Below, piece after piece: positions 949 to 18,295 of a stretch of DNA of 20,000 bases. The stretch lies in the IMG/VR virus record IMGVR_UViG_3300032288_004324; one strand, written 5' to 3'. Positions within the stretch are counted from its first letter, which is position 1. Every line of letters begins with the position of its first letter. The notes below the pieces were generated by a model. It did no database searches and was not told the origin of the DNA. It worked only from the letters and a program-made list of their open reading frames with translations. The translations under genes and the position numbers were made by a program. The stretch comes from an uncultured virus (IMG/VR IMGVR_UViG_3300032288_004324) (taxonomy: Duplodnaviria; Heunggongvirae; Uroviricota; Caudoviricetes).

Positions 949-1335
949 ATGCAAAAAATTAAGATAATACAAGAGGAATATTCTAATGATCCATGGAAAG
1001 TACTAGTATGTTGTATATTACTCAACCAAACTAGTAACAAACAGGTAAGACCCTTAATAGAAAGTTTTTTTAATAGATGGCCAAATTCTCAATCATTATT
1101 GGATGAGGAGATTTTGCCCATTTCTGATTTTATAAAGTCAACAGGATTTCAAAATATGAAAGCTAAGAGAATTAAAGAATTCTCAATTGCATGGGAGATG
1201 GGGATAAGGGATCCTTTTAAATTTCCTGGTGTTGGTGATTATGGTAGGGAAGCTTGGAGAATCTTTGTTGATAACGACAAATCATTTATTCCGAAAGACA
1301 AGAAGCTTAAAATGTATTTAGAATCGGTTCATTAA
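949..1335 (+). CDS. MBD4-like HhH-GPD DNA glycosylase (G:T/G:U mismatch type), catalytic domain only
   Basis: IQEE..NDPWKVLVCCILLNQTS, HhH motif FPGVGDYGREAWRIF and PKDKKL with the catalytic Asp match the MBD4 glycosylase domain (DPWKLLIATIFLNRTS...LHGIGKYGNDSYRIF...PEDHKL). Confidence 0.85.
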   Translation: MQKIKIIQEEYSNDPWKVLVCCILLNQTSNKQVRPLIESFFNRWPNSQSLLDEEILPISDFIKSTGFQNMKAKRIKEFSIAWEMGIRDPFKFPGVGDYGREAWRIFVDNDKSFIPKDKKLKMYLESVH

Positions 1336-1341
1336 TATATA
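1334..1341 (+). promoter_or_regulatory. candidate late promoter motif AATATATA
   Basis: 4 nt upstream of ATG 1346. The same motif recurs before six other starts. It overlaps the upstream stop codon. Confidence 0.45.
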
Positions 1342-1345
1342 CTAC

Positions 1346-1930
1346 ATGAATCATTTATTTACTTTTAATCAACTTTTTGAAAAATTACAGATGGTTACTT
1401 CAAACTGGTCAATCATAAGTAACGAGAGTTCTTTTGAAAAGAAGGATGATAACGGATATTTAGTTTTTAGTAAGGAGGGAACTTTTTCTATTATATACAA
1501 AAAGAAGTCCCTACAGGAAGAATCTAGAATAGACTTTTACTCGAGCAAAGAAAATTCGTCGGATAAAAAATCTATATGTGAGTGTAAGATCACTACAACA
1601 TCTGGAATGGATAGAGTAAAAACAGGATTTCCTGATATAACAGAAAAAAATATATGGGAAATAATATCATTATTTTTTGACTATTCTGATATTGAAAAAT
1701 CCGAAAAAAATTCTTACGATATTTTTTTAATGGGATTTTCTAAATCAATAAAGGAAGTTCAGATTAGTGAAGAAAAAGACCAGCTTTCTCCTAGCTTTAT
1801 AATGTTTTGTAAGTATCTAAAAGATGGAGTAAAAAAATCGGAAGACCCTAAAATTCCACAGAAGCATTATAATTTAACGAGTGCAGTTAAAAATTTTATA
1901 GAAAATTTTAAGTCTTCTAAGAAATATTAG
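1346..1930 (+). CDS. hypothetical protein with N-terminal capsid-targeting-like motif
   Basis: 194-aa ORF starting MNHLFTFNQLFE; no recognisable domain. Confidence 0.75.
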   Translation: MNHLFTFNQLFEKLQMVTSNWSIISNESSFEKKDDNGYLVFSKEGTFSIIYKKKSLQEESRIDFYSSKENSSDKKSICECKITTTSGMDRVKTGFPDITEKNIWEIISLFFDYSDIEKSEKNSYDIFLMGFSKSIKEVQISEEKDQLSPSFIMFCKYLKDGVKKSEDPKIPQKHYNLTSAVKNFIENFKSSKKY

Positions 1931-1943
1931 ATTTTTTAATCCA

Positions 1944-2252
1944 TTATTTTGAATCTTCCCTTCTTTTTAGTTGGTTTAAATAATCTGCCCAAACCAATCC
2001 ACCTTCTTTTATTGATGTCTTTTTAGATTTATGCAGTTCTGCCCTCTTGGACATTATATAGGAAGCTATTATAGCATCTTTCAATTCTATTTCTTTTTTA
2101 TCTAGCATTTCTTGAATTGTCCTTACTGATTTTAAAGCCTCGTCTCTATTAGAAAATCTTAAACCCCTAGCATATTTTTTTTCTTTGCTAAAAGGATTTA
2201 TATCATTCAGATAAATCTGCTCGAATAATTTGAAGGTTAGAATTTTTTTCAC
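1944..2252 (-). CDS. hypothetical protein, the only credible minus-strand gene (GTG start), with N-terminal capsid-targeting-like motif
   Basis: Fills the gap between two + strand genes with no competing ORF. Starts MKKILTFKLFEQ and has AATATATA 4 nt upstream on the minus strand. Confidence 0.8.
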   Translation of the reverse strand: MKKILTFKLFEQIYLNDINPFSKEKKYARGLRFSNRDEALKSVRTIQEMLDKKEIELKDAIIASYIMSKRAELHKSKKTSIKEGGLVWADYLNQLKRREDSK

Positions 2253-2256
2253 CTAA

Positions 2257-2264
2257 TATATATT
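2257..2264 (-). promoter_or_regulatory. candidate late promoter motif AATATATA (minus strand)
   Basis: The reverse complement reads GGAATATATATTAG-GTG directly into the 2252 start. Confidence 0.5.
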
Positions 2265-2271
2265 CCTTTTT

Positions 2272-2299
2272 GAAACCTCTTTCGTTAACAGCTATAAAA
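2272..2299 (+). promoter_or_regulatory. candidate early/middle promoter GAAAC-N18-TAAAA
   Basis: GAAAC 2272-2276 and TAAAA 2295-2299, 5 nt before the polymerase ATG. The same architecture occurs before nrdA and both topo II genes. Confidence 0.55.
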
Positions 2300-2304
2300 T
2301 AGAT

Positions 2305-3711
2305 ATGATAATAGATATAGAGAACACTGGAAATTCTTTATCGGTTTCTCATTATACGGAAGAAGGGGATGTTAATTTATTAAAAATCCCAGTACCTAAA
2401 CATTTACAATTTGTTTGGCAAAAGACTTCCGAGAATGATAAAAACAAAGATAAGGATTGGAGATCATGGGATAATCTTCCAATTAAAAAGGTACCTTCTA
2501 GTAAATTTGATAAGTATAGAGTAGTGGAAATATTAGAGGCTATAGATCCTAATGTAACTAAACCACTTTGGGATTATCAGACCCCTAAAAAATACTTTGT
2601 TGATATTGAGGTAGAAATAACAGATAACAGGGCAGATTCATTAGATACTGAGAATTCTAAAAACCGTGTCCTCTCCATAGGTATGGCTTCATCGCAAGGT
2701 AAAGTTTTAGTTATAGGATTAGAAGATATTCCACCTGATAGGATACTTAAAATTGAAAAAAGAATAAAAGATCATTTTAAGGATCTTCCTGGGGAATGGA
2801 CATTTAACTATAGAAAATTCGATAGCGAATTCGATATGTTATATACATTTCTCTCTAAGCTTGTCCCAAAAATGCCATTAATTACTGGATGGAACTGGTT
2901 TGGATATGACTGGCCTTATCTTATAAATAGAGCAAAAAGATTGGGTATAGATCCTAAAATAGCTTCACCTAGCGGAATTCTTTTAGGTATGAATCAAATA
3001 CCTATGCACGTTCTTATGGTGGATTACCTTGATATTTACAAAAAGTGGGATAGAGTAATAAAAATAAGAGAATCTAATTCTTTGGATTATGTAGCAAATC
3101 AAGCAATAGGAATAAAGAAGATATCTTACAACGGAACTCTAAAAGATCTATATGAATCTGATTTTGAAACATTTATTTTCTATAACGCAGTTGACTGTAT
3201 TTTAGTTCATTATATAGATAAAAGACTGGATACTCTTTCAACTTTTTTTAAAATTGCAGAAGTAAGTAGAGTAGAAATTAATAGAGCTCTTTCTCCGGTA
3301 TGGACAACTGAAGTACTGATGCTTCGTAAGTTTTTGGAAAGAAAGAAAATTATTGTAAATGAAAGGAAGGGAGAATCTCACGTAAAATTTGAAGGTGCTT
3401 ATGTTAAGAAACCGGAAAAAGGCCTATATGAATGGATAGCCTGTTTTGACTTTGCTTCACTGTATCCTAATACTATGATGCAATGGGGAATTTCACCAGA
3501 AGCTTATTTAGGAAAGAATTTAAAAGAAATTCCAGAGGGTGCTATAAAAACTTCATCGGGTGCTGTATTTTATAGTAAGGACGGACAAGAACCTATACTT
3601 AGGGAAATATTAAAGGGGCTTTATTCTCAAAGAAAAGCTACAAAGAAGAAATATTTTGAGTGTGAGAAAGAAATAGAAAAAATTAAAAAAGCAATAAAAG
3701 AAAAATCATAA
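2305..3711 (+). CDS. family B DNA polymerase, N-terminal subunit of a split enzyme (3'-5' exonuclease, motif A, first fingers helix)
   Basis: ExoI FVDIEV, ExoII TGWNWFGYDWPYL, ExoIII YNAVDC, FEGAYV and motif A FDFASLYPN are present. The protein ends at TAA after a helical tail; motifs B (KxxxNSxYG) and C (DTDS) are absent. Confidence 0.9.
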   Translation: MIIDIENTGNSLSVSHYTEEGDVNLLKIPVPKHLQFVWQKTSENDKNKDKDWRSWDNLPIKKVPSSKFDKYRVVEILEAIDPNVTKPLWDYQTPKKYFVDIEVEITDNRADSLDTENSKNRVLSIGMASSQGKVLVIGLEDIPPDRILKIEKRIKDHFKDLPGEWTFNYRKFDSEFDMLYTFLSKLVPKMPLITGWNWFGYDWPYLINRAKRLGIDPKIASPSGILLGMNQIPMHVLMVDYLDIYKKWDRVIKIRESNSLDYVANQAIGIKKISYNGTLKDLYESDFETFIFYNAVDCILVHYIDKRLDTLSTFFKIAEVSRVEINRALSPVWTTEVLMLRKFLERKKIIVNERKGESHVKFEGAYVKKPEKGLYEWIACFDFASLYPNTMMQWGISPEAYLGKNLKEIPEGAIKTSSGAVFYSKDGQEPILREILKGLYSQRKATKKKYFECEKEIEKIKKAIKEKS

Positions 3712-3714
3712 ATT

Positions 3715-4179
3715 ATGGCAAATACAGATAACAAATGTTCAGATCTTCCGATAGAGGATTTTTACACAGGGTCGGAAGACACTTTAGGACTAATTTACAA
3801 CAAGCAGAAAGAACTACAGGAAAGATATGGGTTCGATTTTAAAGATTGGAATATTAAACAAATTGCAGATTTCTGGATGGTAAACAAGCATGCACTCGGT
3901 GATGAGCTAAACGAAATGTTTGATGCACTGGGAGGAATTAATGACGGAATAGGATCTGCTGGGTGGAAATATTGGAAGGGAGATAATAAAAAAACTGTAG
4001 ATATGAAGATATCGGATCTTAGTGAATCTGACAAGAAAGAACTTTTTTATGAATGGATTGACGGTCTTCATTTTTACATGAACTTTGCAATTTCTATAGG
4101 AATGACCAGTAAGGATATTGTTAATCTTTATATGGCAAAAAATTCCGAAAATCATGACCGACAAGAGAGAGGATACTAA
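3715..4179 (+). CDS. T4 gp56-like dCTPase/dUTPase (all-alpha dimeric NTP pyrophosphatase)
   Basis: DELNEMFDALG, GWKYWK, ELFYEWIDGLHF and C-terminal LYMAKNSENHDRQERGY parallel T4 gp56 (DEFRELL..LG, WKKWK, FELVDIFHF, KN..N..RQ..GY). Confidence 0.85.
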   Translation: MANTDNKCSDLPIEDFYTGSEDTLGLIYNKQKELQERYGFDFKDWNIKQIADFWMVNKHALGDELNEMFDALGGINDGIGSAGWKYWKGDNKKTVDMKISDLSESDKKELFYEWIDGLHFYMNFAISIGMTSKDIVNLYMAKNSENHDRQERGY

Positions 4180-4185
4180 TATATA
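4178..4185 (+). promoter_or_regulatory. candidate promoter motif AATATATA upstream of nrdB
   Basis: 18 nt before ATG 4204. It overlaps the previous TAA, so it may be chance. Confidence 0.3.
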
Positions 4186-4203
4186 CATAACATAAAAAGA
4201 GAC

Positions 4204-5184
4204 ATGGAAAAATTATTAACACCAAACCCTAAAAGATTTTCATTATTCCCTGTACAACACCACGACATGTGGACGATGTATAAAACAGCCGAAGCATCAT
4301 TCTGGACAGCGGAAGAAATAGATCTAGCACAAGATATAAGTCACTGGAGGGACAAATTAAATGACAACGAAAGATATTTCATTAAACATGTAATCGCTTT
4401 CTTTAATAACTCTGATGGTATAGTTAACGAGAATCTAGCAGCCAATTTTTTTAATCAAGTTCAATATCCAGAAGCTAGATGTTTTTACGGATTTCAACTA
4501 GCCATCGAAAATATACACGGGGAAACATATTCTCTCCTTATAGATTCTTATATAAGCGACCAAGAGGAGAAGGAACATTTATTTAATGCAATAGATACTG
4601 TTCCTTCTGTTAAGAGAAAAGCAGATTGGGCAATGAAATGGATAGAGAAGGGTTCTTTTATAGAGACACTAATTGCTTTTGCAGCAGTTGAAGGTATTTT
4701 CTTCTCCGGATCTTTTTGTTCTATTTTCTGGTTAAAGAAAAGAGGATTAATGCCAGGCCTATGTTTTGCTAATGAATTAATATCAAGGGACGAGGGATTA
4801 CATTGTGATTTTGCTTGTTTACTTTACACTAAACACATCGAAAATAAACTATCAGAAGAAACAGTGGTAGAGATAATTTCGGAAGCGGTAGAGATAGAAA
4901 AAGAATTTGTTACATCTTCTTTACCTGTTAGACTTATAGGTATGAACTCTGATCTTATGTGCGAATATATCGAATTTGTAGCTGATAGATTATTAGTTTC
5001 ATTAGGATGCTCTAAGATTTATAATACTAAATGTCCATTTGATTTTATGGTTAATATAGCACTAGAAAATAAGGGAAATTTCTTCGAAGGAAGAGTAGGA
5101 TCTTATCAAAAATCTGGCGTTATGGACAGTACTAAAGATTCTAAAGATTCTGGTAAAACTTTCACCATGGATGCTGACTTTTAA
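4204..5184 (+). CDS. nrdB: class Ia ribonucleotide reductase beta subunit (eukaryote-like/Bacteroidetes NrdBe type)
   Basis: [25 protein letters not shown] (radical Tyr), [20 protein letters not shown] and C-terminal FTMDADF. Confidence 0.97.
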
Positions 5185-5206
5185 ATTGGAGAAGTGTCTT
5201 TATGAT

Positions 5207-5214
5207 GATATATA
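5207..5214 (+). promoter_or_regulatory. candidate late promoter motif GATATATA
   Basis: Intergenic, 21 nt before the GTG of the collagen-like gene. Confidence 0.5.
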
Positions 5215-5229
5215 AAGAGCATATAATAA

Positions 5230-6150
<921 letters not shown>

Positions 6151-6225
6151 TTCATAATATTGATATTCTATGTCTTAAAATTTCTAAAATCTATCGGAAA
6201 TTGAAATTATTAAATCAAAATTCCT

Positions 6226-6253
6226 GAAACTAATTGTCGGTAAAAAAATAAAA
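6226..6253 (+). promoter_or_regulatory. candidate early/middle promoter GAAAC-N18-TAAAA
   Basis: TGAAAC ending at 6230 and TAAAA at 6249-6253, followed by an A-rich leader to the nrdA ATG at 6271. Confidence 0.5.
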
Positions 6254-6270
6254 AAATAAAATAGAAAAAA

Positions 6271-8637
6271 ATGGAAGTAATAAAAAGAGATGGATCCAAG
6301 GAGAGAGTTAAGCTGGATAAGATTCTTAACAGAGTTAAAAAACAATGTTATGGTTTAAATATGGATTATATTGAGCCCATGGAAATTGCTAAGAAAGTTA
6401 TTCACGGTTTATATGATGGAATATCTTCAGCGGAGCTTGACACTTTAGCAGCTGAAACTGCAGCTGCATTAACACCTACTCATCCGGATTATTCAATTCT
6501 TGCTGCTAGAATTTGTGTTACTTCTTTACATAAAACAACGCCTAAAAGTTTTTCGCAGGTTATAGATCAGCTATATAATTATGTTGATCCTAAGACGGGA
6601 TTAAAAGCACCTATGATAGCTGATGATGTTTATGAGATAATCATGAATAACTCTAAGGATATAGATTCTCAAATTATTACTGACAGAGATCTTGATTATG
6701 ATTATTTTGGTTTTAAAACATTGGAGAAGTCATATTTATTGAAAATAGACGGATTACCTGCGGAGAGACCGCAACAAATGTTAATGAGAGTTGCTATAGG
6801 GATACATAAAAACGATCTTTTATCCGCTTATAAAACTTATGATTTAATGAGTCAGGGGTATTTCACTCATGCTACACCGACTCTATTTAATTCTGGGACA
6901 AGAAGACCACAATTATCTTCTTGCTTCTTAGTTTCTATGGATGATGATTCAATCCAGGGTATTTACAAAACATTATCTGATGTAGCTCAGATCTCTAAGA
7001 ATGCAGGGGGAATAGGATTACATATTCATAATGTAAGAGGTACAGGAGCTTATATCAAAGGAACAAATGGTACTTCCAATGGAATTATTCCGATGTTGAA
7101 AGTATTTAATGAAACTGCTAGATACGTTGATCAAGGAGGGGGAAGAAGAAAAGGATCTTTTGCTATATACTTAGAGCCTTGGCATTGTGACGTTGAGGAT
7201 TTCTTAAATCTTAGAAAAAATCATGGGAAGGAAGAAATGAGAGCTAGGGATCTTTTCTTAGCTTTATGGACTCCGGATCTATTTATGGAAAGAGTAAAAG
7301 AAAATGGGGATTGGACTCTATTTTCGCCAGATGAAGCTCCAGGATTAGATGACGTATATGGAGAAGAATTTAATAAACTTTATAATAAATATGAATCGGA
7401 GGGAAGAGGAAGAAAAACAGTAAAAGCTCAAGATCTTTGGTATAAAATTATAGAAGCACAAATAGAAACTGGAACTCCTTATATTCTTTATAAAGATTCT
7501 GCTAATTTAAAATCTAATCAAAAAAATCTAGGAACTATTAAATCTTCCAATCTTTGCACTGAGATTATCGAATATTCAGATTCTAAAGAAACTGCAGTTT
7601 GTAATCTAGCTTCTATAGCACTCCCTAAGTTTATTATACCAGGTAAGAAACCTAAATACGATCTTAATGCTCTTAAAGATATAGCTTATACAGCAACAAT
7701 TAATCTTAACAGAGTGATTGATGTTAACTATTATCCTACTAAAGAAACTAAGACTTCTAATATGAAGCACAGACCGATTGGAATTGGGGTACAAGGTTTA
7801 GCAGATACTTTTGCTATACTAAAAATCCCTTTCGAATCTGATGAAGCAAAAACATTAGACAGGGATATTTTTGAGGCAATCTATTACGGAGCTATGTGTG
7901 CTTCCGTGGATCTTGCAGAAAAAGAGGGAGCATATCAGACATTTAAAGGATCTCCTTTATCGAAAGGATTATTCCAATTTGATTTATGGAACGAATCACC
8001 AGGTACAAGATGGGACTGGGAAGAATTAAGAGAAAGAGTTAAAACTTTTGGAGCTAGGAATTCTTTATTGCTTGCTCCTATGCCTACTGCATCTACTAGT
8101 CAGATTCTAGGAAACAATGAATGTTTTGAACCTTTCACTTCTAACATTTATATTAGAAAAACATTGTCTGGAGAATTTCCAGTAGTTAATAAACATTTAG
8201 TCAAGGATTTGGTTAAAATTGGATTATGGAGCGAAAATCTTAGAGATAAGATTATAATTAATAATGGATCTGTCCAAGACATACCTGAAATTCCTGAAGA
8301 TCTTAAAGCTATTTACAAAACTGCTTGGGAGATGAGTCAGAAAATTATTATAGATCATGCTGCTTCTAGAGCTCCTTTTATATGTCAAAGTCAAAGTATG
8401 AATTTATTTGTTCAGGATGCTAACTTTGCAAAACTTTCTTCCGCTCATTTTTATGGATGGGATAGAGGGTTAAAGACAGGAAGCTATTACATAAGGACTA
8501 AAGCTGCTACCACAGCAATTAAAGGTCTAGGAATAGATATACAGAAAAGTGAACCAATAAAAACTGAGACTGATAACTATAGTGATCTAGTTTGTAGTAT
8601 AGATAACCCGGATGATTGTGAAGCTTGTGGATCATAA
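6271..8637 (+). CDS. nrdA: class Ia ribonucleotide reductase alpha subunit with ATP-cone
   Basis: ATP-cone [19 protein letters not shown], catalytic [27 protein letters not shown] and C-terminal CEACGS. Confidence 0.97.
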
Positions 8638-8652
8638 ATATTGATATGGAAA

Positions 8653-9303
8653 ATGAAAAATAATCCTAAAAAAATAAACGATTTCAAAGAATTTGTAAAA
8701 GAATTTGGTGATATTGATGGGAAGAAAAATCTAGAATCTATTCCTTGTATAATTTTAGCTGGACCTCCTGGGTGTGGTAAAGGAACTCAGGCTAAGATAA
8801 TATCTAAAGGTATGAGATGGAAACATATATCAACTGGAGATATTTTAAGGGCATCTGGAGATAAGGATATAAAAAAAATAATGAAAACTGGGGAATTACT
8901 ACCAGATGATCTAGTAGGAAAAGAACTAATATCATATCTTAAAGAATATTCTAAAGACCACGATCCTAAGGGATTTATATTTGATGGATATCCGAGGAAT
9001 CTTTCACAGAAGGATATTTTTGAAGAAATATGTAGGGTTAATAGATTAAAATTGGTTTATGTATTCTTTTTAAATGCTCCAGAATCTTTATTAAGAAAAA
9101 GAATATCTGATAGAGGTAAAACCTCCGGAAGATCCGACGATAAAAGCAGCAAAGTTTTTAATAAAAGGATGAAAGAGTATAATGATCAAACACTACCTAT
9201 GATAGAATCCATGAGGAATGGATCTAATTTTATAGAAATATCATCCAATAGAAGCCTTGAGGAGATATCTTCGTTGATATTTAATAAATTAAACGAAATT
9301 TAA
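8653..9303 (+). CDS. adk: adenylate kinase (short-lid) with ~28-aa N-terminal extension
   Basis: P-loop GPPGCGKGTQA, HISTGDILR, GELLPD, FDGYPRN and short lid RGKTSGRSDD. ATG 8653 is preferred over the in-frame TTG at 8641. Confidence 0.92.
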   Translation: MKNNPKKINDFKEFVKEFGDIDGKKNLESIPCIILAGPPGCGKGTQAKIISKGMRWKHISTGDILRASGDKDIKKIMKTGELLPDDLVGKELISYLKEYSKDHDPKGFIFDGYPRNLSQKDIFEEICRVNRLKLVYVFFLNAPESLLRKRISDRGKTSGRSDDKSSKVFNKRMKEYNDQTLPMIESMRNGSNFIEISSNRSLEEISSLIFNKLNEI

Positions 9304-9340
9304 TCAGTAAACATTTGTATAACTATTAAAATTAAATAAA

Positions 9341-10567
9341 ATGTCTAAAAAAGAAAAACAATCGGTTTCAGAAGAACAGGAGAAAAAACAACCAACTATC
9401 TGTTTAACAATGATAGTTAAAAATGAATCTCAGGTAATTAGAAGATGTATAGATTCAGTAAAAGATTATATTAGTTATTGGGTTATTGTAGATACAGGAT
9501 CAACTGATGGTACACAGGATCTGATTAAAGAAATTATGAACGAATACAATATACCAGGGGAATTATACGAGAGACCTTGGGTTGATTTTGGACATAATAG
9601 AACTGAGAGTCTACAATATTCTAAAGATAAAGCAGATTATAGACTTATTATAGATGCTGATGATGTTCTATTTGTAGAAAATCCAGAGATAAATCCCTTT
9701 TTAAATATAGATAAGGACTTTTATAAAATAAAAATAAGATTAGGATCTCTTGCTTACTATAGATCACAAGTAATAAGAGGAAGCCAAGATTGGAAATATG
9801 TAGGGGTTTTACATGAATATCTTTCAGGACCGGAGGGGGTTTCTTTGGAAGAGGATTTTTTAGATGGAGTTGAAATGCACGCTTCTGTTTCAGGACACAA
9901 TAGAGATATAAAAGGAAAAGACAAATATTACAACGATGCACTAATATTTGAAAAAGCTATACTTACTACCCCTAAGGAGGATCTTCCTATCGATTTAGAA
10001 AGGAGATATGTTTTTTATATGGCTCAAAGTTATAGAGATGCAGGAATGCACGAAAGATCTATTGAATCATATCAAAGAAGAGTAGATTTGGGAGGATGGC
10101 ACGAGGAGGTTTATATTTCAAAATATTGGATTGCTAGACAAAAGCAAACGATGGGTAAACCAGAAGAAGAAATAATTGACGCATATTTAAAAGCTTGGGA
10201 ATATAGACCTAACAGATTAGAATCTTTATATCATCTTATTAAATTCTTAGGAAGTAAAAAAAGATATGCTTTAGCTTTTGCTCTTTCCGCAATAGGAATG
10301 AAAACTGGGCCTTGTTCAGATATTCTTTTTGTTGAAGATGAAATATGGAAATGGAGAATGCCAGATGAGTATTCAGTTCTTGCTTACTATAACGGAAATC
10401 CAGAGGAAGCTTTAAAGACAACTAATATACTTATTAGCTCTAGCGTATTCGAAAAGCTTTCTAAAGGAGAGCAGGATCGTATAAAGAAAAATCTAGATTT
10501 CTATCAGAAAGCTATAGATAGAAAAAATGGAATAGAGGAACCTACAGAGGAATTACAGGAATCTTAA
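9341..10567 (+). CDS. family 2 glycosyltransferase with C-terminal TPR-like repeats
   Basis: CLTMIVKNES, VDTGSTDGT, DFGHNR, DADD (DxD) and VGVLHEY, followed by helical repeats (YVFYMAQSYRDAG, YLKAWEYRPNRLESLY). Confidence 0.9.
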   Translation: MSKKEKQSVSEEQEKKQPTICLTMIVKNESQVIRRCIDSVKDYISYWVIVDTGSTDGTQDLIKEIMNEYNIPGELYERPWVDFGHNRTESLQYSKDKADYRLIIDADDVLFVENPEINPFLNIDKDFYKIKIRLGSLAYYRSQVIRGSQDWKYVGVLHEYLSGPEGVSLEEDFLDGVEMHASVSGHNRDIKGKDKYYNDALIFEKAILTTPKEDLPIDLERRYVFYMAQSYRDAGMHERSIESYQRRVDLGGWHEEVYISKYWIARQKQTMGKPEEEIIDAYLKAWEYRPNRLESLYHLIKFLGSKKRYALAFALSAIGMKTGPCSDILFVEDEIWKWRMPDEYSVLAYYNGNPEEALKTTNILISSSVFEKLSKGEQDRIKKNLDFYQKAIDRKNGIEEPTEELQES

Positions 10568-10576
10568 ATACACTCG

Positions 10577-10584
10577 GATATATA
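10577..10584 (+). promoter_or_regulatory. candidate late promoter motif GATATATA, overlapping a 7-bp inverted repeat
   Basis: GGATATATAAC-ATAAAA-GTTATATC, 18 nt before ATG 10603. Confidence 0.5.
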
Positions 10585-10602
10585 ACATAAAAGTTATATC
10601 AA

Positions 10603-11085
10603 ATGAGAATTTTAAGATTTGAAGATTTCCTTAACGAATCCACATATAATGTCGGAATTCCTATTTACAGAGGATCTAGTTTCCAACCAGAAAGAACTAT
10701 AAAGAGAAATAAATTTATAGGAGAACTGAAAGACTTTCTTTCGCAGGTTGCAAACGGTACTTTATCGGAAATAACTGTTATTGCAGAAATACCAACGCAG
10801 GGTAAAAATGCACCTTCTTATTTAAAAGACATATATTCAGAAATGGGATATGATCCATCTAAAGAAACTGAAGATGAATACGATCCTGAAACTGATGTTT
10901 ATATGGGAGACAGAAGTAGAAATCCAGACGAGCCTTCAAGAAATATATTCGTAGACTCTGAATTTTTAGTTAAAGACGTTGATGAAACTAGAGGAGTAAT
11001 TATAGCAGTTCCTTATTCTTTAAAAAGAAAGAATGTTATGGTTGAGCTTACTCCAGATCTTATCGACGAGGCTTTTATTAAATAA
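10603..11085 (+). CDS. hypothetical acidic protein with N-terminal capsid-targeting-like motif
   Basis: 160-aa ORF beginning MRILRFEDFLNES. Confidence 0.8.
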   Translation: MRILRFEDFLNESTYNVGIPIYRGSSFQPERTIKRNKFIGELKDFLSQVANGTLSEITVIAEIPTQGKNAPSYLKDIYSEMGYDPSKETEDEYDPETDVYMGDRSRNPDEPSRNIFVDSEFLVKDVDETRGVIIAVPYSLKRKNVMVELTPDLIDEAFIK

Positions 11086-11086
11086 T

Positions 11087-11446
11087 ATGGATTTTGGGGA
11101 TTTTTATATAGCAAAAATCGGCGACCATACTTTTATATTAGAAGAGTGTAAAGATTTTCCAAAAGGACTTTCAGAAAGAGAGCATCTCCACGAAAACGAG
11201 GGGATGCTTTTTAATTTTAATGATCCGGGATATAGATCTTTTCATATGAAGGGATGTCTAATAAACCTTGATATAATATTTTTAAAAGAAGGAAAAATAG
11301 AAAAAATATACCACAACTGCAATCCTTGTGAATTAAATGAATGTGAGCAATTTGAACACGAGTCTGCTGACACTGTAATAGAATTAAAAGGAGGTACTTG
11401 CAATAAAAATAATATAAGTGAAGGCCTAATCTATAGACTCATATAG
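11087..11446 (+). CDS. DUF192 family protein
   Basis: KGLSERE.L..NEGMLFNF, SFHMKGCLINLDIIF and VIELKGG. ATG 11087 (1 nt after the upstream stop) is preferred over 11033. Confidence 0.85.
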   Translation: MDFGDFYIAKIGDHTFILEECKDFPKGLSEREHLHENEGMLFNFNDPGYRSFHMKGCLINLDIIFLKEGKIEKIYHNCNPCELNECEQFEHESADTVIELKGGTCNKNNISEGLIYRLI

Positions 11447-11475
11447 GAAACTTTTCCTTTCCTTTGCTGTTAAAA
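11447..11475 (+). promoter_or_regulatory. candidate early/middle promoter GAAAC-N19-TAAAA
   Basis: GAAAC 11447-11451, a pyrimidine-rich spacer and TAAAA 11471-11475, upstream of the topo II large subunit. Confidence 0.5.
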
Positions 11476-11553
11476 CATATGATTATAAATACCTATTTTA
11501 TTATAGGGATATTATAAATATTGAATTTCAATTTAAAACCGAAGATATAGAGA

Positions 11554-13338
11554 ATGTCATCTAAGAAAGAGATAAAGGTTCTATCCGAGAGGGAACATAT
11601 TTTATTAAGACCAACTGTTTATGTGGGGAGTGTAAAACCAACAGACGAAAAGACACCTATAATAAGAAATAATAAGATTTTTATTGAATCTAAGAAGCTT
11701 TCTGTCGGAATGTATAAATTATTTGACGAAGTTTTTTCAAATGCTTTAGACGAAGCTAAACGGATGAATGGTAAAATGAAAAGCATTCGTATAGAAGTAA
11801 ACACCAAAGATAATAGTGTTTCTGTTACTGATACTGGAAATGGATTTTATAAAGGAACTGATATCAATAAAGTTAGCGGAAAAACAAATATAGAAACAGC
11901 GGTTTCGCAGCTTAGAGCAGGATCTAATTTTGAGAATGAAGATGTGGAGGAATCTTTAGTTGGTACTAATGGTATGGGTGTTAGTTTAGTAAATGTTTTA
12001 TCCAAGTATTTTTCAATAGAAACTATAAACGAAAAAAACTATTATTTTCAGGAGTGGAAAAACTATGAGGGAGAACTTCCAAAAATCGAGAAGATTAATA
12101 ACAGAAAAACTGGGACTACTGTTAAATTTAAACCAATTTCAGAAGTATTTGGATACGATAAATGGGATAAAGAAGTTCTCTCATCCATACTTATACTAAA
12201 ATATGATCTTATTAAAAGAGACTCTATTCTTTGTAATCTTGGACTAGATCTTATATGGGATGGAGAAAATATAGAACTTAATGTTGAATTCTTACCTAAA
12301 GAGTGTTTTAAAATAAATACCGAAATAGGACAGATAACTATATGGGAAAAGTACGAAGGATCTGGACCTATAAGTTTTGTAAACTCTGCCATATGTACTG
12401 GTATACATCAGAAAATAATAAATGATTTTATTAACAATAAACTTGATGATACCTTAGGTCATCATTTTTATGATTCTATGATAGTTCTAAACTTGGCACC
12501 GAAGTATGTAAAATTCGGTGACCAAAACAAAACTAGGTTTGTTACTACAAGGGAGGAGATAGAAAATTTATTAACTAATAAATTTGGATCCAAGCTGCAG
12601 GGATTTTTTAAAACTGATCTTTTTAATAAAATACAAAAGAAGGTAGATGAAAGGAAAAATGAAGGTTATGTAAAAAAGCTAAGAGCAGAAAAAAGAAAGG
12701 TTAATCTTAAGCATTCACATAAATATTTTCCTGCACAAAAAGCAGTGGCGGAGAATCTTTTTATAGTAGAGGGATTATCTGCTATGGGATCTATATTACA
12801 GAAAAGAAATCCTAAAGAGGATGGGGTATATGCTCTAAAAGGAAAAATAAAAAATTGTAGAAATATAGGAGACTTATCTGATAATAAAGAGATACTTGAA
12901 TTGATGCAAATATTGGGACTTGATCCATCTTCTAGAAATAATGAGATAGTTGGTTATAAGAAGATAATAATTGCAACTGATCCGGATCCTGACGGATCCC
13001 ATATAACTTCTCTTCTTATAAATTTATTTTACCGATGGTTTCCTACTGTTATTAAAACAAAAAGATTAGGATTTTTAAAAATCCCATTAGTTTCAGTTGG
13101 CGATTTAAAGAAGAGAAAATACTACTGGGACTTGGACGATTTTAAGAAAGCTAAACCATCAGGGAACATAAGATACTTGAAGGGACTAGGATCTCTTTCT
13201 TTAGAGGACTGGGAATGGGTTATGGGTAGTAAGCAATTGATATCTATCGAAGAGAGTGAAGATAGTAAAGAAAAACTTGATATGGCATTTGGAGATTCTT
13301 CTGATTTAAGAAAAAAATGGCTATCAAACAATATGTAG
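11554..13338 (+). CDS. type IIA DNA topoisomerase, ATPase/TOPRIM subunit (T4 gp39+gp60 fused, GyrB/ParE-like)
   Basis: EHILLRPTVYVGS, DEVFSNALDE, DTGNG, GSNF, GTNGMGVSLVN, TOPRIM VEGLSA, LKGKI, DPDPDGSHI and YLKGLGS. Confidence 0.95.
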   Translation: MSSKKEIKVLSEREHILLRPTVYVGSVKPTDEKTPIIRNNKIFIESKKLSVGMYKLFDEVFSNALDEAKRMNGKMKSIRIEVNTKDNSVSVTDTGNGFYKGTDINKVSGKTNIETAVSQLRAGSNFENEDVEESLVGTNGMGVSLVNVLSKYFSIETINEKNYYFQEWKNYEGELPKIEKINNRKTGTTVKFKPISEVFGYDKWDKEVLSSILILKYDLIKRDSILCNLGLDLIWDGENIELNVEFLPKECFKINTEIGQITIWEKYEGSGPISFVNSAICTGIHQKIINDFINNKLDDTLGHHFYDSMIVLNLAPKYVKFGDQNKTRFVTTREEIENLLTNKFGSKLQGFFKTDLFNKIQKKVDERKNEGYVKKLRAEKRKVNLKHSHKYFPAQKAVAENLFIVEGLSAMGSILQKRNPKEDGVYALKGKIKNCRNIGDLSDNKEILELMQILGLDPSSRNNEIVGYKKIIIATDPDPDGSHITSLLINLFYRWFPTVIKTKRLGFLKIPLVSVGDLKKRKYYWDLDDFKKAKPSGNIRYLKGLGSLSLEDWEWVMGSKQLISIEESEDSKEKLDMAFGDSSDLRKKWLSNNM

Positions 13339-13358
13339 AGATATCTAAATATTAAATG

Positions 13359-13366
13359 GATATATA
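13359..13366 (+). promoter_or_regulatory. candidate late promoter motif GATATATA
   Basis: Intergenic, 5 nt before ATG 13372. Confidence 0.5.
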
Positions 13367-13371
13367 ATAGG

Positions 13372-14118
13372 ATGATTCTAAGGTTAAAAGATTTTATTAT
13401 AGAGCAGGAAATTACAGGAGAGAAATCACCTACCCCCTCTACTTCTATGAGTTCTAAGAAGAACTTATCTATAAATTGGGTAAAGCCAGATCTGGCTGAG
13501 GAGATAGAGCATTATGACGATAAAGCTAAATTAGAATTTTATCAGCATAATATAACTATAGGAAATAAGGACATCGGTAAAACCTCTCCTAGATCAACTA
13601 AATTTTACAAGTATATTTCGGAACCTTTTAAAAAGGGTCACTTTGAAAATGTTCCTGTAGTATCTGAAGGAAGCTTTGATGTGAATAGTATACAGAACTT
13701 CATGGTTTATGAATTTGATAATATAGTTAACGGAGCTTACGGAAGATCTTATGGAGATGTACTTATTAAAACAGCAGAAGAATTAAAAAAGAGAGGAAGT
13801 ATAGATTTACCAGCACCTGTAATAATAAAATTTATAAATTTTGGAGAAACCCGAACATCTGAGGAAGCTAGTTATTATTTATTTTCAGGAAACAGAACAG
13901 CAAATTTAGCACTTCAATATAATATACCTATAAAAGCTTGGGTTGTTGATTTAATTCCCTCAAGAAGGGACGTTAGACAATTTGCTGAACAATCCGGTTT
14001 AACATCTGATCCTATCAAATTCAAAAAACTTCTAAGGAGAGAAACTGGTAAGGAAAGTATAGATGATCTAAATGCTAGGGAAAGATTTAAAATCATCCAG
14101 TCTCTTAAGAATTTTTAA
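13372..14118 (+). CDS. hypothetical protein, possible ParB/Srx-like domain, N-terminal capsid-targeting-like motif
   Basis: Starts MILRLKDFIIEQE. LPAPVII...YYLFSGNRTANLA...IPIKAWVV resembles the ParB/Srx core, but the usual GxxR register is altered. Confidence 0.65.
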   Translation: MILRLKDFIIEQEITGEKSPTPSTSMSSKKNLSINWVKPDLAEEIEHYDDKAKLEFYQHNITIGNKDIGKTSPRSTKFYKYISEPFKKGHFENVPVVSEGSFDVNSIQNFMVYEFDNIVNGAYGRSYGDVLIKTAEELKKRGSIDLPAPVIIKFINFGETRTSEEASYYLFSGNRTANLALQYNIPIKAWVVDLIPSRRDVRQFAEQSGLTSDPIKFKKLLRRETGKESIDDLNARERFKIIQSLKNF

Positions 14119-14132
14119 TCTACCTTTACAGT

Positions 14133-15050
14133 ATGCAATATAATACTAGAATGGGGTACTGTTGTCTTTGTCTTTCTTTAGAGAAAGATAAAGTTACTAC
14201 AAATAGAGGAATGATTAAAAAAACATTCTTGGAAAAGGGAATCGGATATGTTTCAGAATTGTGTGTGAAAAACACGGAGGATCTTATAAAAATAATAAGA
14301 TTCAACGGAGAGAAAGGGATAAGAATGTATCGTATGAGTTCTGATATGTTTCCTTGGATGTCCGAATATGAAATATCAGATCTTCCAGATTTTGAAAAAA
14401 TAAAAAATAATCTTAGAGAAGCTGGTGATCTTTCTAAAGAACTTGACCAGAGATTAAGTTTTCATCCGTCTCCATATTGTGTTATTGCCTCAGAGAATCC
14501 TTTAGTTGTTAAAAAATCTATAAAAGAACTTAGACAGCATTCAGAGATAATGGATCTCATGGGACTTGAAAGAAACCATAAATACCCTATAAATATACAT
14601 ATAAATACTACTAAGCCTAGCAAAGAGGAAGCAGCTTTTAGATTTATTAATACGTATAAAGATCTCCCTGAGGGAGTCAAAAAAAGATTAGTTGTTGAGA
14701 ATGACGATAAAAAAAGCCAATTCAATCCTTCAGATTTATATACTATGATATATAAAGAGTCCGGAATACCTATAACTTATGACTTTTTGCATCATAAGTG
14801 TAATCCTGATGAATTATCTGAAAATGAAGCTCTGGATCTTTGTATTTCTACTTGGCCTGATGATATAACAGCTCTAACTCACTTTTCAGATTCAAGAAAG
14901 ATCTTTGAAGATTCTAGTGCTAAAGAAGTAGCACACTCCGATTGGATTTGGAGTAAAATAGAAACTTATGATAAGATTTTTGATATAGAATTAGAGGTGA
15001 AGATGAAAGATCTAGCCTTACTGAAATACTTAGAGGAATGGAAGAAATAG
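14133..15050 (+). CDS. uvsE: UV DNA damage endonuclease (UvsE/UVDE)
   Basis: RMGYCC, IRMYRMSSDMFPW, RLSFHPSPY, INIH, RLVVENDDK, PITYDFLHH, HFSDS, AHSD and IELEVKMKD. Confidence 0.95.
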   Translation: MQYNTRMGYCCLCLSLEKDKVTTNRGMIKKTFLEKGIGYVSELCVKNTEDLIKIIRFNGEKGIRMYRMSSDMFPWMSEYEISDLPDFEKIKNNLREAGDLSKELDQRLSFHPSPYCVIASENPLVVKKSIKELRQHSEIMDLMGLERNHKYPINIHINTTKPSKEEAAFRFINTYKDLPEGVKKRLVVENDDKKSQFNPSDLYTMIYKESGIPITYDFLHHKCNPDELSENEALDLCISTWPDDITALTHFSDSRKIFEDSSAKEVAHSDWIWSKIETYDKIFDIELEVKMKDLALLKYLEEWKK

Positions 15051-15244
15051 ACTTAACTAATTCCAGATGGAGTCCAGAAGATGAAATATATCTTCTGAGT
15101 GTGGTGGAGGGAATAAGGGAGAATTATCCTGAAGCAGATTTAGACGAGGAGTTAAAAATCTCTGGATATTCTATGGAGGATCTAAAGGATCCTAATAAGA
15201 TTGTTTTATTTATGAAGATCCTGAATGAAAAATATCCGGATTAA
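15038..15244 (+). CDS. small acidic hypothetical protein
   Basis: 68-aa ORF overlapping the uvsE stop by 13 nt and coupled to the next ORF by TAATG. Confidence 0.7.
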   Translation: MEEIDLTNSRWSPEDEIYLLSVVEGIRENYPEADLDEELKISGYSMEDLKDPNKIVLFMKILNEKYPD

Positions 15245-15384
15245 TGAGAATATTAAAAAACGCTATCTTTTTTCCCTTATATTTAACATTTGGGTTTTCT
15301 ATCTATGCTTTCCTGTTTTTCTATGAATTTCCTTTTTTAATTTTTAATATTTTTTCAATAACTAAAAAGGATAAGCTTGGTTAA
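15244..15384 (+). CDS. 46-aa Phe-rich membrane microprotein (not in ORF track)
   Basis: MRILKNAIFFPLYLTFGFSIYAFLFFYEFPFLIFNIFSITKKDKLG*. The ATG overlaps the upstream TAA (TAATG) and the stop overlaps the dnaJ start by 8 nt. Confidence 0.65.
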   Translation: MRILKNAIFFPLYLTFGFSIYAFLFFYEFPFLIFNIFSITKKDKLG

Positions 15385-16447
15385 CTATTACGAAATTTTA
15401 GGTATACAAGAAAATGCCGACCAGGAAACTATAAAGAGAGCTTATAGGATAATGGCTAAAAAATATCATCCAGATAAAAATAAAGACCCTGGAGCGGAAG
15501 ATCAGTTTAAAAAAATAACAGAAGCTTACGAAAATATAGGAGATCCAGATAAAAGAAAAGCTTATGACAACAAAAGAAATCTAAAAAATCATTTCTTTGA
15601 TGGATTTAGCAATTTTGGGTGGAACGATAATAGTATTTTTGAGAATTTTGGAAACCGTAGCTCTAGGGATCCTTTTTCCAGCCATTATAATCCAGATTTT
15701 CCACAGGACCCTAAAGGAAGTCATTTAAATATAACACTTAAAGTTACTTTTGAAGATGTTATGAGTGGGGTTATTAAAAAAATAAAGCTAAAAAGAGATA
15801 AAAAATGTAATCCTTGCAAAGCAACAGGAGCTGAGGGAGGAACATCATTTCAAACTTGTGGAACATGTAACGGATCTGGTCAAATACAAGTAAGTAGAAT
15901 AAATGGTTTTGTTCAAGTAAACAGTATCGCTTCTTGTAATATTTGTGGAGGGAGTGGAAAATTAGTATTGGAAGCATGTCTTTATTGTCTAGGGAAGGGA
16001 TTAGTTAACGATGATGATATTATAGATATAAATATACCTGCTGGATCTTCAGATGGTATGCAATTTGTTGTATCGAGCAAAGGGAATGACGGTAAGGGTA
16101 ATGGAATTCCTGGGGATTTATATGTCAAAATAAAAGAAATACCTAGCGATAAATTTGTTAGAAGGGGAACGGATCTTATAGAAGCTAGAGAAATATCTTT
16201 TATAGATGCTGTACTAGGAAAAAATATAGACGTTGAAATGCCGGATGGGGAAAGGCTAAAAGCTATTATATCCCCTGGGACAATACCGGGGACAATACTT
16301 AAGTTTTCACAGAGAGGAATACCCAATTTAGGTTATGGTGGGAGAGGAGACTTCCTTATAGAAATAAATATAAGAATTCCTTCATATCTTTCTGAAGAGG
16401 AGAAGAAATTTATGGAAGAATTAAGAGAATATGATATTTTTAAATAA
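15377..16447 (+). CDS. dnaJ: class A DnaJ/Hsp40 chaperone (TTG start)
   Basis: J-domain NYYEILG...YHPDKN, G/F-like linker, four Cys motifs (CNPCKATG, CGTCNGSG, CNICGGSG, CLYCLGKG) and C-terminal PGDLYV, RRGTDL, GRGDFLI. Confidence 0.95.
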   Translation: MVNYYEILGIQENADQETIKRAYRIMAKKYHPDKNKDPGAEDQFKKITEAYENIGDPDKRKAYDNKRNLKNHFFDGFSNFGWNDNSIFENFGNRSSRDPFSSHYNPDFPQDPKGSHLNITLKVTFEDVMSGVIKKIKLKRDKKCNPCKATGAEGGTSFQTCGTCNGSGQIQVSRINGFVQVNSIASCNICGGSGKLVLEACLYCLGKGLVNDDDIIDINIPAGSSDGMQFVVSSKGNDGKGNGIPGDLYVKIKEIPSDKFVRRGTDLIEAREISFIDAVLGKNIDVEMPDGERLKAIISPGTIPGTILKFSQRGIPNLGYGGRGDFLIEINIRIPSYLSEEEKKFMEELREYDIFK

Positions 16448-16455
16448 AATAAACA

Positions 16456-16779
16456 ATGGAATCTTTTATATTTTTTATATTATCATCCTGGGGATTAACA
16501 CACATATTGGTTTCTTCTAAAATAATGGAGCCATTTAGGAATTGGTTACTTATAAACTCTCCTTTTTTTGGTGATATGCTAAATTGCTACCAATGTACTT
16601 CTTTCTGGACTTCCATGATGTTATATTTCTTTTTTAATGATTTACCTATAAACTCTATATCTACAACAATTTATGGTCATAGAATAGGAGCAGATTTTCT
16701 ATTATGGTCTTTCGTTGGATCTGGAATCATATCATTTATAGCATTAATAATGTCTATACTAATTAAAAAGACTAAATAG
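16456..16779 (+). CDS. DUF1360-like small membrane protein
   Basis: Three hydrophobic stretches with LTHILV.SKIMEPFR and GDMLNCYQCTSFW (CxxCxSxW). Confidence 0.7.
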   Translation: MESFIFFILSSWGLTHILVSSKIMEPFRNWLLINSPFFGDMLNCYQCTSFWTSMMLYFFFNDLPINSISTTIYGHRIGADFLLWSFVGSGIISFIALIMSILIKKTK

Positions 16780-16785
16780 TTTTTT

Positions 16786-16793
16786 GATATATA
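16786..16793 (+). promoter_or_regulatory. candidate late promoter motif GATATATA
   Basis: 5 nt before ATG 16799, which supports that ATG over TTG 16784. Confidence 0.5.
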
Positions 16794-16798
16794 GATAT

Positions 16799-18295
16799 AT
16801 GGAAAAAAAGATTAAAATTCTATCTTTCGATCAGTTCATGAACGAACAAGATGGAACAGCAGGTGCAACAGGATCTGCTACTGCTACAGATACTAATAAG
16901 GTAGAAAGGCCAGAAACTGAAAGAGAAGCAAAGTCTAGAATAGCATTTGGCATAATAAAAAGTATTTTCGGAGACGTTGAAGGATTAACTGGTGGGGTTG
17001 ATAGTATGATTGAGCAAACTAAAGAGGTCAAAGAATCATTACCTTACAGAGGATGCGGAACAAATGAACCTTATAAATTAGAAAAGGTTCCTTTATCTGT
17101 TCTTACTATAAAAATACTATTAAATTACCTACAAAAGGAAGGTAAAGGAGATTATACAAAATCTATAAAAGAACTCAATGAAAAAAGGGCGGTTATTTTA
17201 GGGGTTAGGAGTAAAATTGCGGTAAAAAAAGAATCTGCAAATCAGGATAGATTTTGTGATTCTTTATATTACATTCCAGGAAATTCTAAAGATGGATCGG
17301 AATCTGAATCTTCCACAGGATCAACCGGATCTAATTCTAATTCAAAGAAAAATGAATCATATCTATTTGATATAATAGATCAAAAAATAAATGAGCTAGA
17401 GTATATTTCCGAATCGGGAATATGGAATTTTGAAGAATTTGAAAGCCTTAAAATGCGAAGAGATAATCTATTAGAAAGTAAAGGATTATTAGAAAGCGGT
17501 AAGATATCTGAGAAAGAATTTATAGAATTAAATGAGGATGCCTTAGGTGTTAGTCCGATACTACGTGGATTAGGAGGCGACGCAACTGGAAAAAAAACGG
17601 GGTCAACTGGAGCAACTGGATCAGCTGTAGCAACTGGAGCAACTGGAGCAACTAGCGGGGCTGGATCAAAAAATTTGGGGGATATAATAAATCCTTATCA
17701 GATAACAACAGTAGCTAGCTTGGCTTATTATGGTAAAAAACCTATGAATCCTAAGGGTGTTGGAATAAAGCTACCAGGTGATACTGCTTATATACTTCAA
17801 GAGGCAACTTTAGGTGGTAAGCAAAAGTATAAAATGATGGTAGAAGCACAAAAAATTAAAGTGGGGAGATATCCTATCGGTGTTACAAAATATGAGACTT
17901 ATAAGCCAGCAGAGGAGTACGAGGAAAGCTGTGGAATGCACATACACAGATCTTCAACTAATGGAGTAGGTATATGTATAGGTCCATGGTCTGCAGGATG
18001 TCAAGTTTTCTCTGACGCTAATGAATTTAATGATTTTATATCTAAGGCAAATAAGGAATCAATGAATGCTGGAAAATTCATTTATGCTCTTATACAGCTA
18101 GATGATATCCCTAAAGAAGTATTAGAAGCTGCTTTAACTGGTGTTGAATATACTGGTCCTAAAGAGGTTGTTCAAGCAACAGGATCAACAGGATCAACAG
18201 GATCAACAGTAAGTACAGATAAAAAATCTACGAAGCAGGAATATGCTGGGAATTTAAAGAATTTTGGTAGACTGAAAGACCAGAAGGGGGATTGA
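16799..18295 (+). CDS. putative virion protein with YkuD/L,D-transpeptidase-like His/Cys catalytic motif, low-complexity GST/GAT linkers and N-terminal capsid-targeting-like motif
   Basis: Starts MEKKIKILSFDQFMNEQ. Contains ILGVRS...QDRFCD, then GMHIHRSS...GPWSAGCQVF (H...S-x-G-C). Confidence 0.65.
   Translation: MEKKIKILSFDQFMNEQDGTAGATGSATATDTNKVERPETEREAKSRIAFGIIKSIFGDVEGLTGGVDSMIEQTKEVKESLPYRGCGTNEPYKLEKVPLSVLTIKILLNYLQKEGKGDYTKSIKELNEKRAVILGVRSKIAVKKESANQDRFCDSLYYIPGNSKDGSESESSTGSTGSNSNSKKNESYLFDIIDQKINELEYISESGIWNFEEFESLKMRRDNLLESKGLLESGKISEKEFIELNEDALGVSPILRGLGGDATGKKTGSTGATGSAVATGATGATSGAGSKNLGDIINPYQITTVASLAYYGKKPMNPKGVGIKLPGDTAYILQEATLGGKQKYKMMVEAQKIKVGRYPIGVTKYETYKPAEEYEESCGMHIHRSSTNGVGICIGPWSAGCQVFSDANEFNDFISKANKESMNAGKFIYALIQLDDIPKEVLEAALTGVEYTGPKEVVQATGSTGSTGSTVSTDKKSTKQEYAGNLKNFGRLKDQKGD

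Follow-up and report, generated by a model that had tools for sequence, protein, structure and literature searches.

The stretch of DNA analysed here (the window) comprises 20,000 nucleotides (nt) from an uncultured virus of the Caudoviricetes (IMG/VR record IMGVR_UViG_3300032288_004324). The window belongs to a large T4-like phage, and its 22 called genes include those for a split-type PolB, nrdA and nrdB, two topoisomerase subunits, adk, UvdE, DnaJ and a glycosyltransferase. Six otherwise unrelated open reading frames (ORFs), designated by their start positions as ORFs 1346, 2252, 8653 (adk), 10603, 13372 and 16799, begin with a similar short peptide, referred to below as the tag, with the consensus [HKR]-I-[KL]-[SLN]-F-[EKN]-[EQDN]-F-[ILV]-N-E-[SEQN] (Table 1). 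An initial annotation had proposed that this peptide is a portable signal for packaging proteins into the phage head, similar to the capsid targeting sequence (CTS) of phage T4, and the proposal is examined here in the window, in related contigs and in cultured phages.

Table 1. Tags, tag look-alikes and RATATATA motifs in the window (scores are those of the tag profile, family-held-out for the N-terminal tags; aa, amino acids; a slash marks the position after Glu)
Feature	Position	Strand	Remark
N-terminal tag, variant spacing, weak, of 194-aa protein (1346-1930)	1346..1384	+	score 6.5
N-terminal tag of 102-aa protein (1944-2252, GTG start)	2214..2252	-	score 13.6
N-terminal extension (~30 aa) of adenylate kinase (8653-9303), tag at aa 7-18	8653..8742	+	score 6.1
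N-terminal tag ending FLNE/S, 160-aa protein (10603-11085)	10603..10641	+	score 23.4
N-terminal tag of 248-aa protein (13372-14118)	13372..13410	+	score 12.6
N-terminal tag ending FMNE/Q, 498-aa protein (16799-18295)	16814..16849	+	score 20.7
C-terminal look-alike without Glu site, ORF 106-441	400..438	+	score 9.2; core conserved in 6/6 orthologues
C-terminal look-alike without Glu site, ORF 451-918	868..903	+	score 7.2; core conserved in 8/8 orthologues
Weak internal second tag copy, ORF 16799, amid aliphatic-x-Glu cluster at aa 203-244	17417..17452	+	score 6.5
RATATATA promoter-like motif before ORF 1346	1334..1341	+	
RATATATA promoter-like motif before ORF 2252	2257..2264	-	
RATATATA promoter-like motif before ORF 10603	10577..10584	+	
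RATATATA promoter-like motif before ORF 13372	13359..13366	+	
RATATATA promoter-like motif before ORF 16799	16786..16793	+	
RATATATA before untagged nrdB	4178..4185	+	7/12 orthologue rows
RATATATA before untagged collagen-repeat gene	5207..5214	+	10/10 orthologue rows

All six N-termini named in the initial annotation are present in the window; in-frame TTG codons lie upstream of adk and ORF 16799 (8641 and 16784, respectively). Similarity to the tag was scored with a profile of 12 positions and a threshold of at least 8, with internal protein blocks and shuffled N-termini serving as controls. As orthologues could inflate the enrichment, the profile was trained anew on the relatives, each family contributing a single site and every family shared with the window being excluded (76 sites). 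Under this family-held-out profile the six ORFs occupy ranks 1 to 6 of the 22 window N-termini, in agreement with the earlier claim of a common leader; four of the tags are strong, those of adk and ORF 1346 are weaker, and the next-best gene scores 3.4. The threshold is reached by 4/22 N-termini versus 1/310 internal blocks, or by 5/22 versus 2/310 with a genome-held-out profile. Negative scores were obtained for the DNA polymerase, nrdA, nrdB and the two topoisomerase subunits, and the core replication enzymes thus lack the motif, as had been stated. The tag of ORF 2252 is kept in 10 of the 10 distinct orthologues listed, the distant orthologues of ORF 1346 have the canonical form, and I3, F6, F9, N11 and E12 are invariant among 12 orthologues of ORF 10603, two of which contain a second LNES.

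Related contigs were found with adk 69-90% and topoisomerase 75-88% identical to those of the window, and genome-scale counts were taken from three of them, G001 (206.6 kb), G002 (148 kb) and G006 (248 kb), in which a simple codon model called 290, 158 and 305 genes, respectively. With each genome held out in turn, N-terminal tags were identified in 40/290, 23/158 and 39/305 genes (13-15%), compared with 3/2332, 9/2091 and 9/3214 of the internal-block controls. Composition-preserving shuffles of the N-termini, a control that the initial annotation had proposed, reach the threshold in 0.5-0.8% of cases, far below the rate of the real N-termini. In a ten-fold family hold-out, tags were found in 70/464 families versus 23/7637 internal blocks, an enrichment of about 50-fold. 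When mis-called starts are allowed for, the numbers of tagged genes are 54, 25 and 46, with a profile that includes the scored genome. After removal of the tag, 67 unrelated families account for the 107 tagged proteins, those within G006 all being separate (39/39), and the tag sits on domains such as ADK and Tad3 whose known homologues have no such extension. The tag is a portable, protein-level N-terminal motif added to unrelated folded domains.

This organization, a short N-terminal peptide with two aromatics three residues apart that is shared by unrelated proteins, appears to reproduce the sequence-level features of the T4 CTS. For the T4 internal protein (IP) IPIII, the available part of PMC9026906 reports that ten N-terminal residues are sufficient to package it, that residues 4 and 7 are mainly responsible for targeting and residues 8 and 10 for processing, that Asp10 prevents processing and not targeting, and that gp21 cleaves after L/I-X-E. 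In the T4 record these key residues are Y4, F7, I8 and E10, the same register as in the tag. An [ILVMF]-x-E site follows the second aromatic within 10 aa in 42/67 tag families, compared with 141/657 internal [FY]xxF sites (P 9e-12), and its commonest endings are INES and LNES.

The same tetrapeptides occur in head proteins. A protease-scaffold of the Peptidase_S77 family and a Gp23 capsid protein are absent from the window and are encoded by the relatives G002, G006 and G007 (75-82% topoisomerase identity); the remaining 7 of the 10 partial related records searched gave no match. In G002 and G006, LNES is found at aa 41 of the capsid protein, INES and LNES occur throughout the protease-scaffold of the relatives, [ILV]NES stands just behind the protease domain in 118 of 120 close scaffold homologues, and each of these 120 contains 11-16 Y-x-x-Y-[LI]-x-E repeats. 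The fusion of prohead protease and scaffold, with its 11-16 near-perfect 14-residue repeats (G006 L048:267-2300; G002 L039:405-2495), is an observation in its own right, and the variable repeat number among the 120 homologues might set head size. With 4406 proteins matching the G006 protease-scaffold at E<=1e-30, the phage group must be large. The G006 capsid protein matches 32 records at 29-43% identity, among them Lak megaphages, PTm1/PTm5, pT24, MA9V, PAU and MaF61; most of the hosts are Bacteroidota, and a Bacteroidota host is therefore likely for the phages studied here as well.

Cultured phages provided a further test. In T4 the initiator Met fills the first hydrophobic slot of the tag, and the profile, which required a preceding residue, at first ranked the internal proteins low. 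A correction for this, chosen post hoc, was applied to all 270 T4 proteins and then to all later cultured phages, and placed gp61.1, IPIII and IPII at ranks 1-3 of 270. Gene 61.1 (L063:18966-19130) encodes a small hypothetical protein whose N-terminus fits the tag better than those of IPII and IPIII; it is possibly an internal protein that has escaped recognition. For cyanophage S-CREM2 (219 ORFs; virion proteins from Table 3 of PMC10665884), the corrected scoring gave nine proteins at or above 8, of which six are non-structural virion proteins, three were undetected and none belongs to the 24 structural proteins. This corresponds to 6/28 non-structural virion proteins versus 3/167 undetected proteins (P 3.3e-4), and to 8/28 versus 4/167 at a score of at least 6 (P 2.3e-5). 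The tagged virion proteins are a cytidylyltransferase, a kinase, an S-adenosylmethionine (SAM) hydrolase, a nuclease and two unknowns, and a strict T4-type pattern selects four proteins, all of them in the virion list. The words 'N-terminal', 'targeting' and 'cleav' are absent from the main text of the S-CREM2 paper (PMC10665884), and the connection to a tag is that of the present analysis.

The tag is best explained as an expanded T4-type head-loading tag, a reading to which we assign a probability of roughly 0.8, and in which the motif [HKR]-I-x-x-F-x-x-F-(aliphatic)-N-E would load a large and mixed cargo into the head. It is proposed that the tagged genes are expressed late, and that a short tag helix would dock the cargo, through its two aromatics, on a prohead core made of the protease-scaffold fusion, whose 14-residue repeats share the pattern Y-x-x-Y-L-A-E with the tag. 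A gp21-type protease would then remove the tags that end in aliphatic-x-Glu (about two thirds of the families) during head maturation; such cutting of the Glu-ending tags is probable. Tags without a Glu site would be loaded yet retained, and uncut tags of this kind are plausible since the register is shared with T4, where Asp10 blocks processing only. Finally, part of the cargo would be ejected with the DNA, including adenylate kinase, the Tad3-family protein, MoxR-type ATPases, a nucleotidyltransferase, cell-wall enzymes and many proteins of no assigned function; we slightly favour ejection of at least some of it. A still broader scheme, which we regard as speculative and rather doubtful, is that one modular helix mimicking the scaffold repeats packs 40-55 proteins, acts at the N-terminus, at the C-terminus or inside polyproteins split by the head protease, and delivers a nucleotide, cell-wall and anti-defence kit; it would then read out injected effectors across T4-like phages and explain the virion enzymes of cyanophages.

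A number of observations weigh against head loading. As 25/67 tag families have no aliphatic-x-Glu site, removal of the tag by the protease is not general, and on the core tag profile the repeats of the scaffold attain no more than about 6. The adk tag has a sub-threshold score with its own family held out (Table 1), and no RATATATA motif precedes adk in the window or in 13/13 orthologue rows. Before the correction, IPI, IPII and IPIII of T4 ranked 245, 264 and 237 of 270; after it, IPI stood at 26 and Alt at 196, and seven non-IP proteins scored at least 8, so that the T4 control is a partial, post-hoc pass. Four of the S-CREM2 matches (gp12-15) are products of neighbouring genes, and virion lists from caesium chloride (CsCl) preparations do not place proteins inside the head. 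For cyanophage S-SZBM1 (218 ORFs; 30 detected proteins in Table 1 of PMC9146016, as far as the available part of that paper goes), one of three tagged proteins was detected, which is not significant (1/12 versus 2/188, P 0.17; the 12 'other' proteins include six that the paper calls structural), and this protein is a homologue of an S-CREM2 match. No tag was found among 55 genes of PTm1 (1-50 kb) and 47 genes of MaF61 (100-150 kb), the nearest cultured capsid-protein relatives, none of the first 68 genes (one 50-kb stretch) of RaK2, a phage for which a virion protein list exists, scores 8, and the whole genome of Molly_1 has one tagged gene in 200; with these four phages essentially devoid of it, the tag is not universal in related jumbo phages. 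The literature search found no virion proteome, N-terminal sequencing or transcriptome for this phage group. The initial proposal is supported in part: a portable T4-type N-terminal tag is well borne out by the genome-wide statistics, the sites in head proteins and the S-CREM2 proteome, and packaging, cleavage and injection are predictions for this phage group.

Among the alternatives, it is improbable that the motif is only an extended prohead-protease site on accessory proteins of the core or shell, whose own bodies would bring them into the head. The aromatics (F/Y at 106 and 112 of the 118 training sites) are better conserved than Glu (50/118), and the families without a cut site, just mentioned, would not fit; the bodies are unrelated enzymes whose characterised homologues have no extension. 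Such a site would nevertheless account for the end of the T4 gp23 propeptide (F-x-x-F-L-T-E), for Y-x-x-F-x-x-LNES in the relatives' capsid protein and for the position of several tagged genes beside head genes in G006 and G002. That ten residues are enough for loading in T4, according to the part of PMC9026906 cited above, also favours a targeting role. A second alternative, to which we give a similarly low probability, is that the helix docks a phage protein in the cytoplasm, for instance the sliding clamp or a chaperone, and has no role in the virion. Its three spaced hydrophobics resemble clamp-binding boxes, the primase of G002 and G006 has a look-alike close to its C-terminus, and look-alikes at C-termini show an enrichment of about 2.5-fold; docking of this kind would, however, leave both the N-E ending and the S-CREM2 virion enrichment unexplained, and the replication proteins of the window have no N-terminal tag. 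A nucleotide-level signal linked to translation or promoters, or a side effect of orthology and of a composition rich in F, K, E and I, is very unlikely and largely refuted: the genome is AT-rich, the gene starts come from a simple caller and Ile at tag position 1 is mildly skewed to ATT (20/42 versus 33% background), but synonymous codons at the tag Phe, Glu and Asn follow the genome background, the adk tag persists while its distances to the start codon and to the P-loop vary, and the shuffled rate and family-held-out enrichment given above argue against composition.

As a candidate cargo of the head-loading tag, adk is the weakest of the six, and we lean only marginally towards its being packaged. 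The gene directly follows nrdA. Cellular ADK models begin at aa 33 of the window protein, and a low-confidence single-sequence model (mean predicted local distance difference test score, pLDDT, 58.5) has a helix at residues 11-21 followed by a loose linker. The full profile gives a score of at least 8 in 107 of 111 full-length homologues, 9 of 120 matches having been dropped because they had no Met start or P-loop. Among the homologue rows printed, the P-loop lies 20-48 residues from the start and the tag is kept; the short adk forms have no aliphatic-x-Glu site.

The initial annotation had also noted RATATATA upstream of five of the six tagged ORFs, and this motif is indeed located 12-26 nt before all of them except adk. 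Its total in the window (10) is not significantly above that in shuffles (mean 8.45), and only its position is non-random; in the three contigs it mostly lies 10-30 nt upstream of genes, with 52 versus 16, 29 versus 5 and 57 versus 17 sense and antisense occurrences. Among genes with an upstream gap, the motif is associated with the tag (P 7e-11, 1e-4 and 1e-6), and 28/45 tagged genes without their own copy follow one inside a tight run. RATATATA was claimed as independent support for co-regulation, and it does speak for shared timing; as 28, 17 and 36 untagged genes in the three contigs, including that for the protease-scaffold, likewise have it upstream, the motif class is broader than the tagged genes and RATATATA does not support packaging. 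We take it to be comparable to the T4 late promoter, and it would then be a late promoter from which the tagged genes are expressed late. Sigma70-like factors of about 290 aa are encoded one to three times per contig (G001 112720, 149383 and 173186; G006 217272). The untagged collagen-repeat gene preceded by RATATATA (window 5236-6150) has a conserved N-terminal domain and orthologues of 108-809 aa, which implies that its repeat and C-terminal part are freely exchanged.

The initial annotation missed two C-terminal look-alikes of the tag and, inside ORF 16799, a weak second copy (Table 1). The location of the latter within the aliphatic-x-Glu cluster suggests that ORF 16799 may be a polyprotein cut in the head; the internal copy scores 12.6-18.1 in 4/13 orthologue rows and below 10 in the other nine. 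The first C-terminal scores, among them the two in Table 1, were padded, which inflated partial matches and produced an artefactual 8.6 for ORF 13372, and the test was repeated unpadded. C-terminal look-alikes were then found in 11/698 cases versus 48/7870 at a score of 6 (P 0.007), a borderline excess, and in 5/698 versus 23/7870 at a score of 8 (P 0.07). Those in primase and endolysin may be coincidental. The G002 primase (L043:9043-10116) has a C-terminal I-x-x-L-x-x-F-F segment that resembles a clamp-binding box.

Most of the tagged proteins have no recognisable family. No Pfam family was assigned to 28/37 scanned G001 proteins or to 37/47 scanned G006 proteins (among these, four from the head region and a few below threshold), and for ORFs 1346, 2252 and 10603 no family emerged from searches of Atlas, PDB, Pfam, PHROG and NCBIfam. 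The matches of ORF 13372 to ParB-like clusters in Atlas score below 0.9 and are a weak lead only. The C-terminal part of ORF 16799 matches phrog_3000 (E 8.8e-10), and the PDB search returned no solved relative of this protein. Its residues 303-438 form a domain common to crAss-like and Pseudoalteromonas phage proteins, one of them annotated as peptidoglycan-binding, with a weak match to an endolysin PHROG, and the protein contains low-complexity GATG/STG linkers. The clearest assignment is a tagged Tad3 homologue in G006 (L055:7584-8351; Pfam E 4.5e-21, PDB 9b7d E 2e-35), in which the match to the solved Tad3 starts at aa 45, after a 44-aa N-terminal extension. As a homologue of a type I Thoeris inhibitor, it is a candidate for an anti-defence protein delivered by the virion, and if head loading holds, candidates for injected anti-defence proteins could be taken directly from the list of tagged proteins. 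Other tagged families include a MoxR-type AAA protein, a DUF2201 peptidase, CHAP and OmpA-like proteins, a second P-loop kinase and a nucleotidyltransferase. In G001 the DUF2201 metallopeptidase and the MoxR-type AAA ATPase (L028:2383-3243 and L028:5285-6889) are both tagged, and the pair is present in two copies per genome region, possibly as a co-packaged module.

Among known systems, the CTS of T4 IPI, IPII and IPIII is the closest, being likewise a short N-terminal peptide on unrelated proteins with aromatics three apart, in the tag often followed by aliphatic-x-Glu; a gp21-type protease, a scaffold and a Gp23 capsid protein are present in relatives of the window phage, and both cargoes include an anti-defence family, T4 internal proteins inhibiting GmrSD nucleases according to the accessible part of PMC12373910. 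The differences are considerable: there are about 40-55 tagged genes per 200-250 kb here, known from sequence alone, and a handful in T4; the tag adds an [HKR]-I-x-x head and prefers an N-E ending; its cargo extends to about 700 aa and contains recognisable enzymes; protease and scaffold are fused; and C-terminal and internal look-alikes occur. In T4-like cyanophages, the tag profile recognises the starts of enzymes found in purified virions (S-CREM2 gp6, gp12-15, gp136 and gp154; S-SZBM1 gp140), but these phages have 3-9 tagged genes per genome and a shorter, T4-like form without the leading Ile. Phages phiKZ and SPN3US, as described in the available part of PMC5694885, also cut many head proteins after Glu with a gp21-related protease and have shared N-termini on some cargo; they differ in their S/A-X-E sites, in propeptides mostly longer than 100 aa without a common short motif and in lineage. 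CTS-like leaders have been described for T4 and close relatives, as far as the accessible parts of these sources go (PMC3012670, PMC7824862, PMC9503650, PMC13326640, PMC13269007, PMC8776804, PMC13573597, PMC12801897, PMC3622015). Nothing was found on a genome-scale tag of this kind in uncultured phages, in a search that left subscription journals mostly, and bioRxiv supplements, outside its reach.

The principle of head loading is itself textbook biology of T4. If the present reading is true, a 12-residue profile would list the proteins, largely of unknown function, that a T4-like phage brings into its host, and would offer a testable reason for the kinases and cytidylyltransferases in cyanophage virion proteomes, where, in the part of PMC9602691 available, the authors were unable to separate cargo from contamination.

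Three observations on neighbouring subjects may be added. The PolB of the window (2305-3711) has only 468 aa and matches a short-subunit PHROG family, and by this criterion appears to be a split DNA polymerase with its other part outside the window. In S-SZBM1, the small genes 191 and 192 (L075:37311-38125) are located near head genes and have strong tags; they are outside the 30-protein virion list in the accessible part of the paper. Maribacter phage Molly_1 has a different shared leader, K-x-L-[IV]-E-[ST] (L067 genes 25 and 26; L068 genes 77 and 79; L069 gene 184), which is also present on a homologue of the tagged G006 nucleotidyltransferase, the cargo having been kept and the leader swapped.

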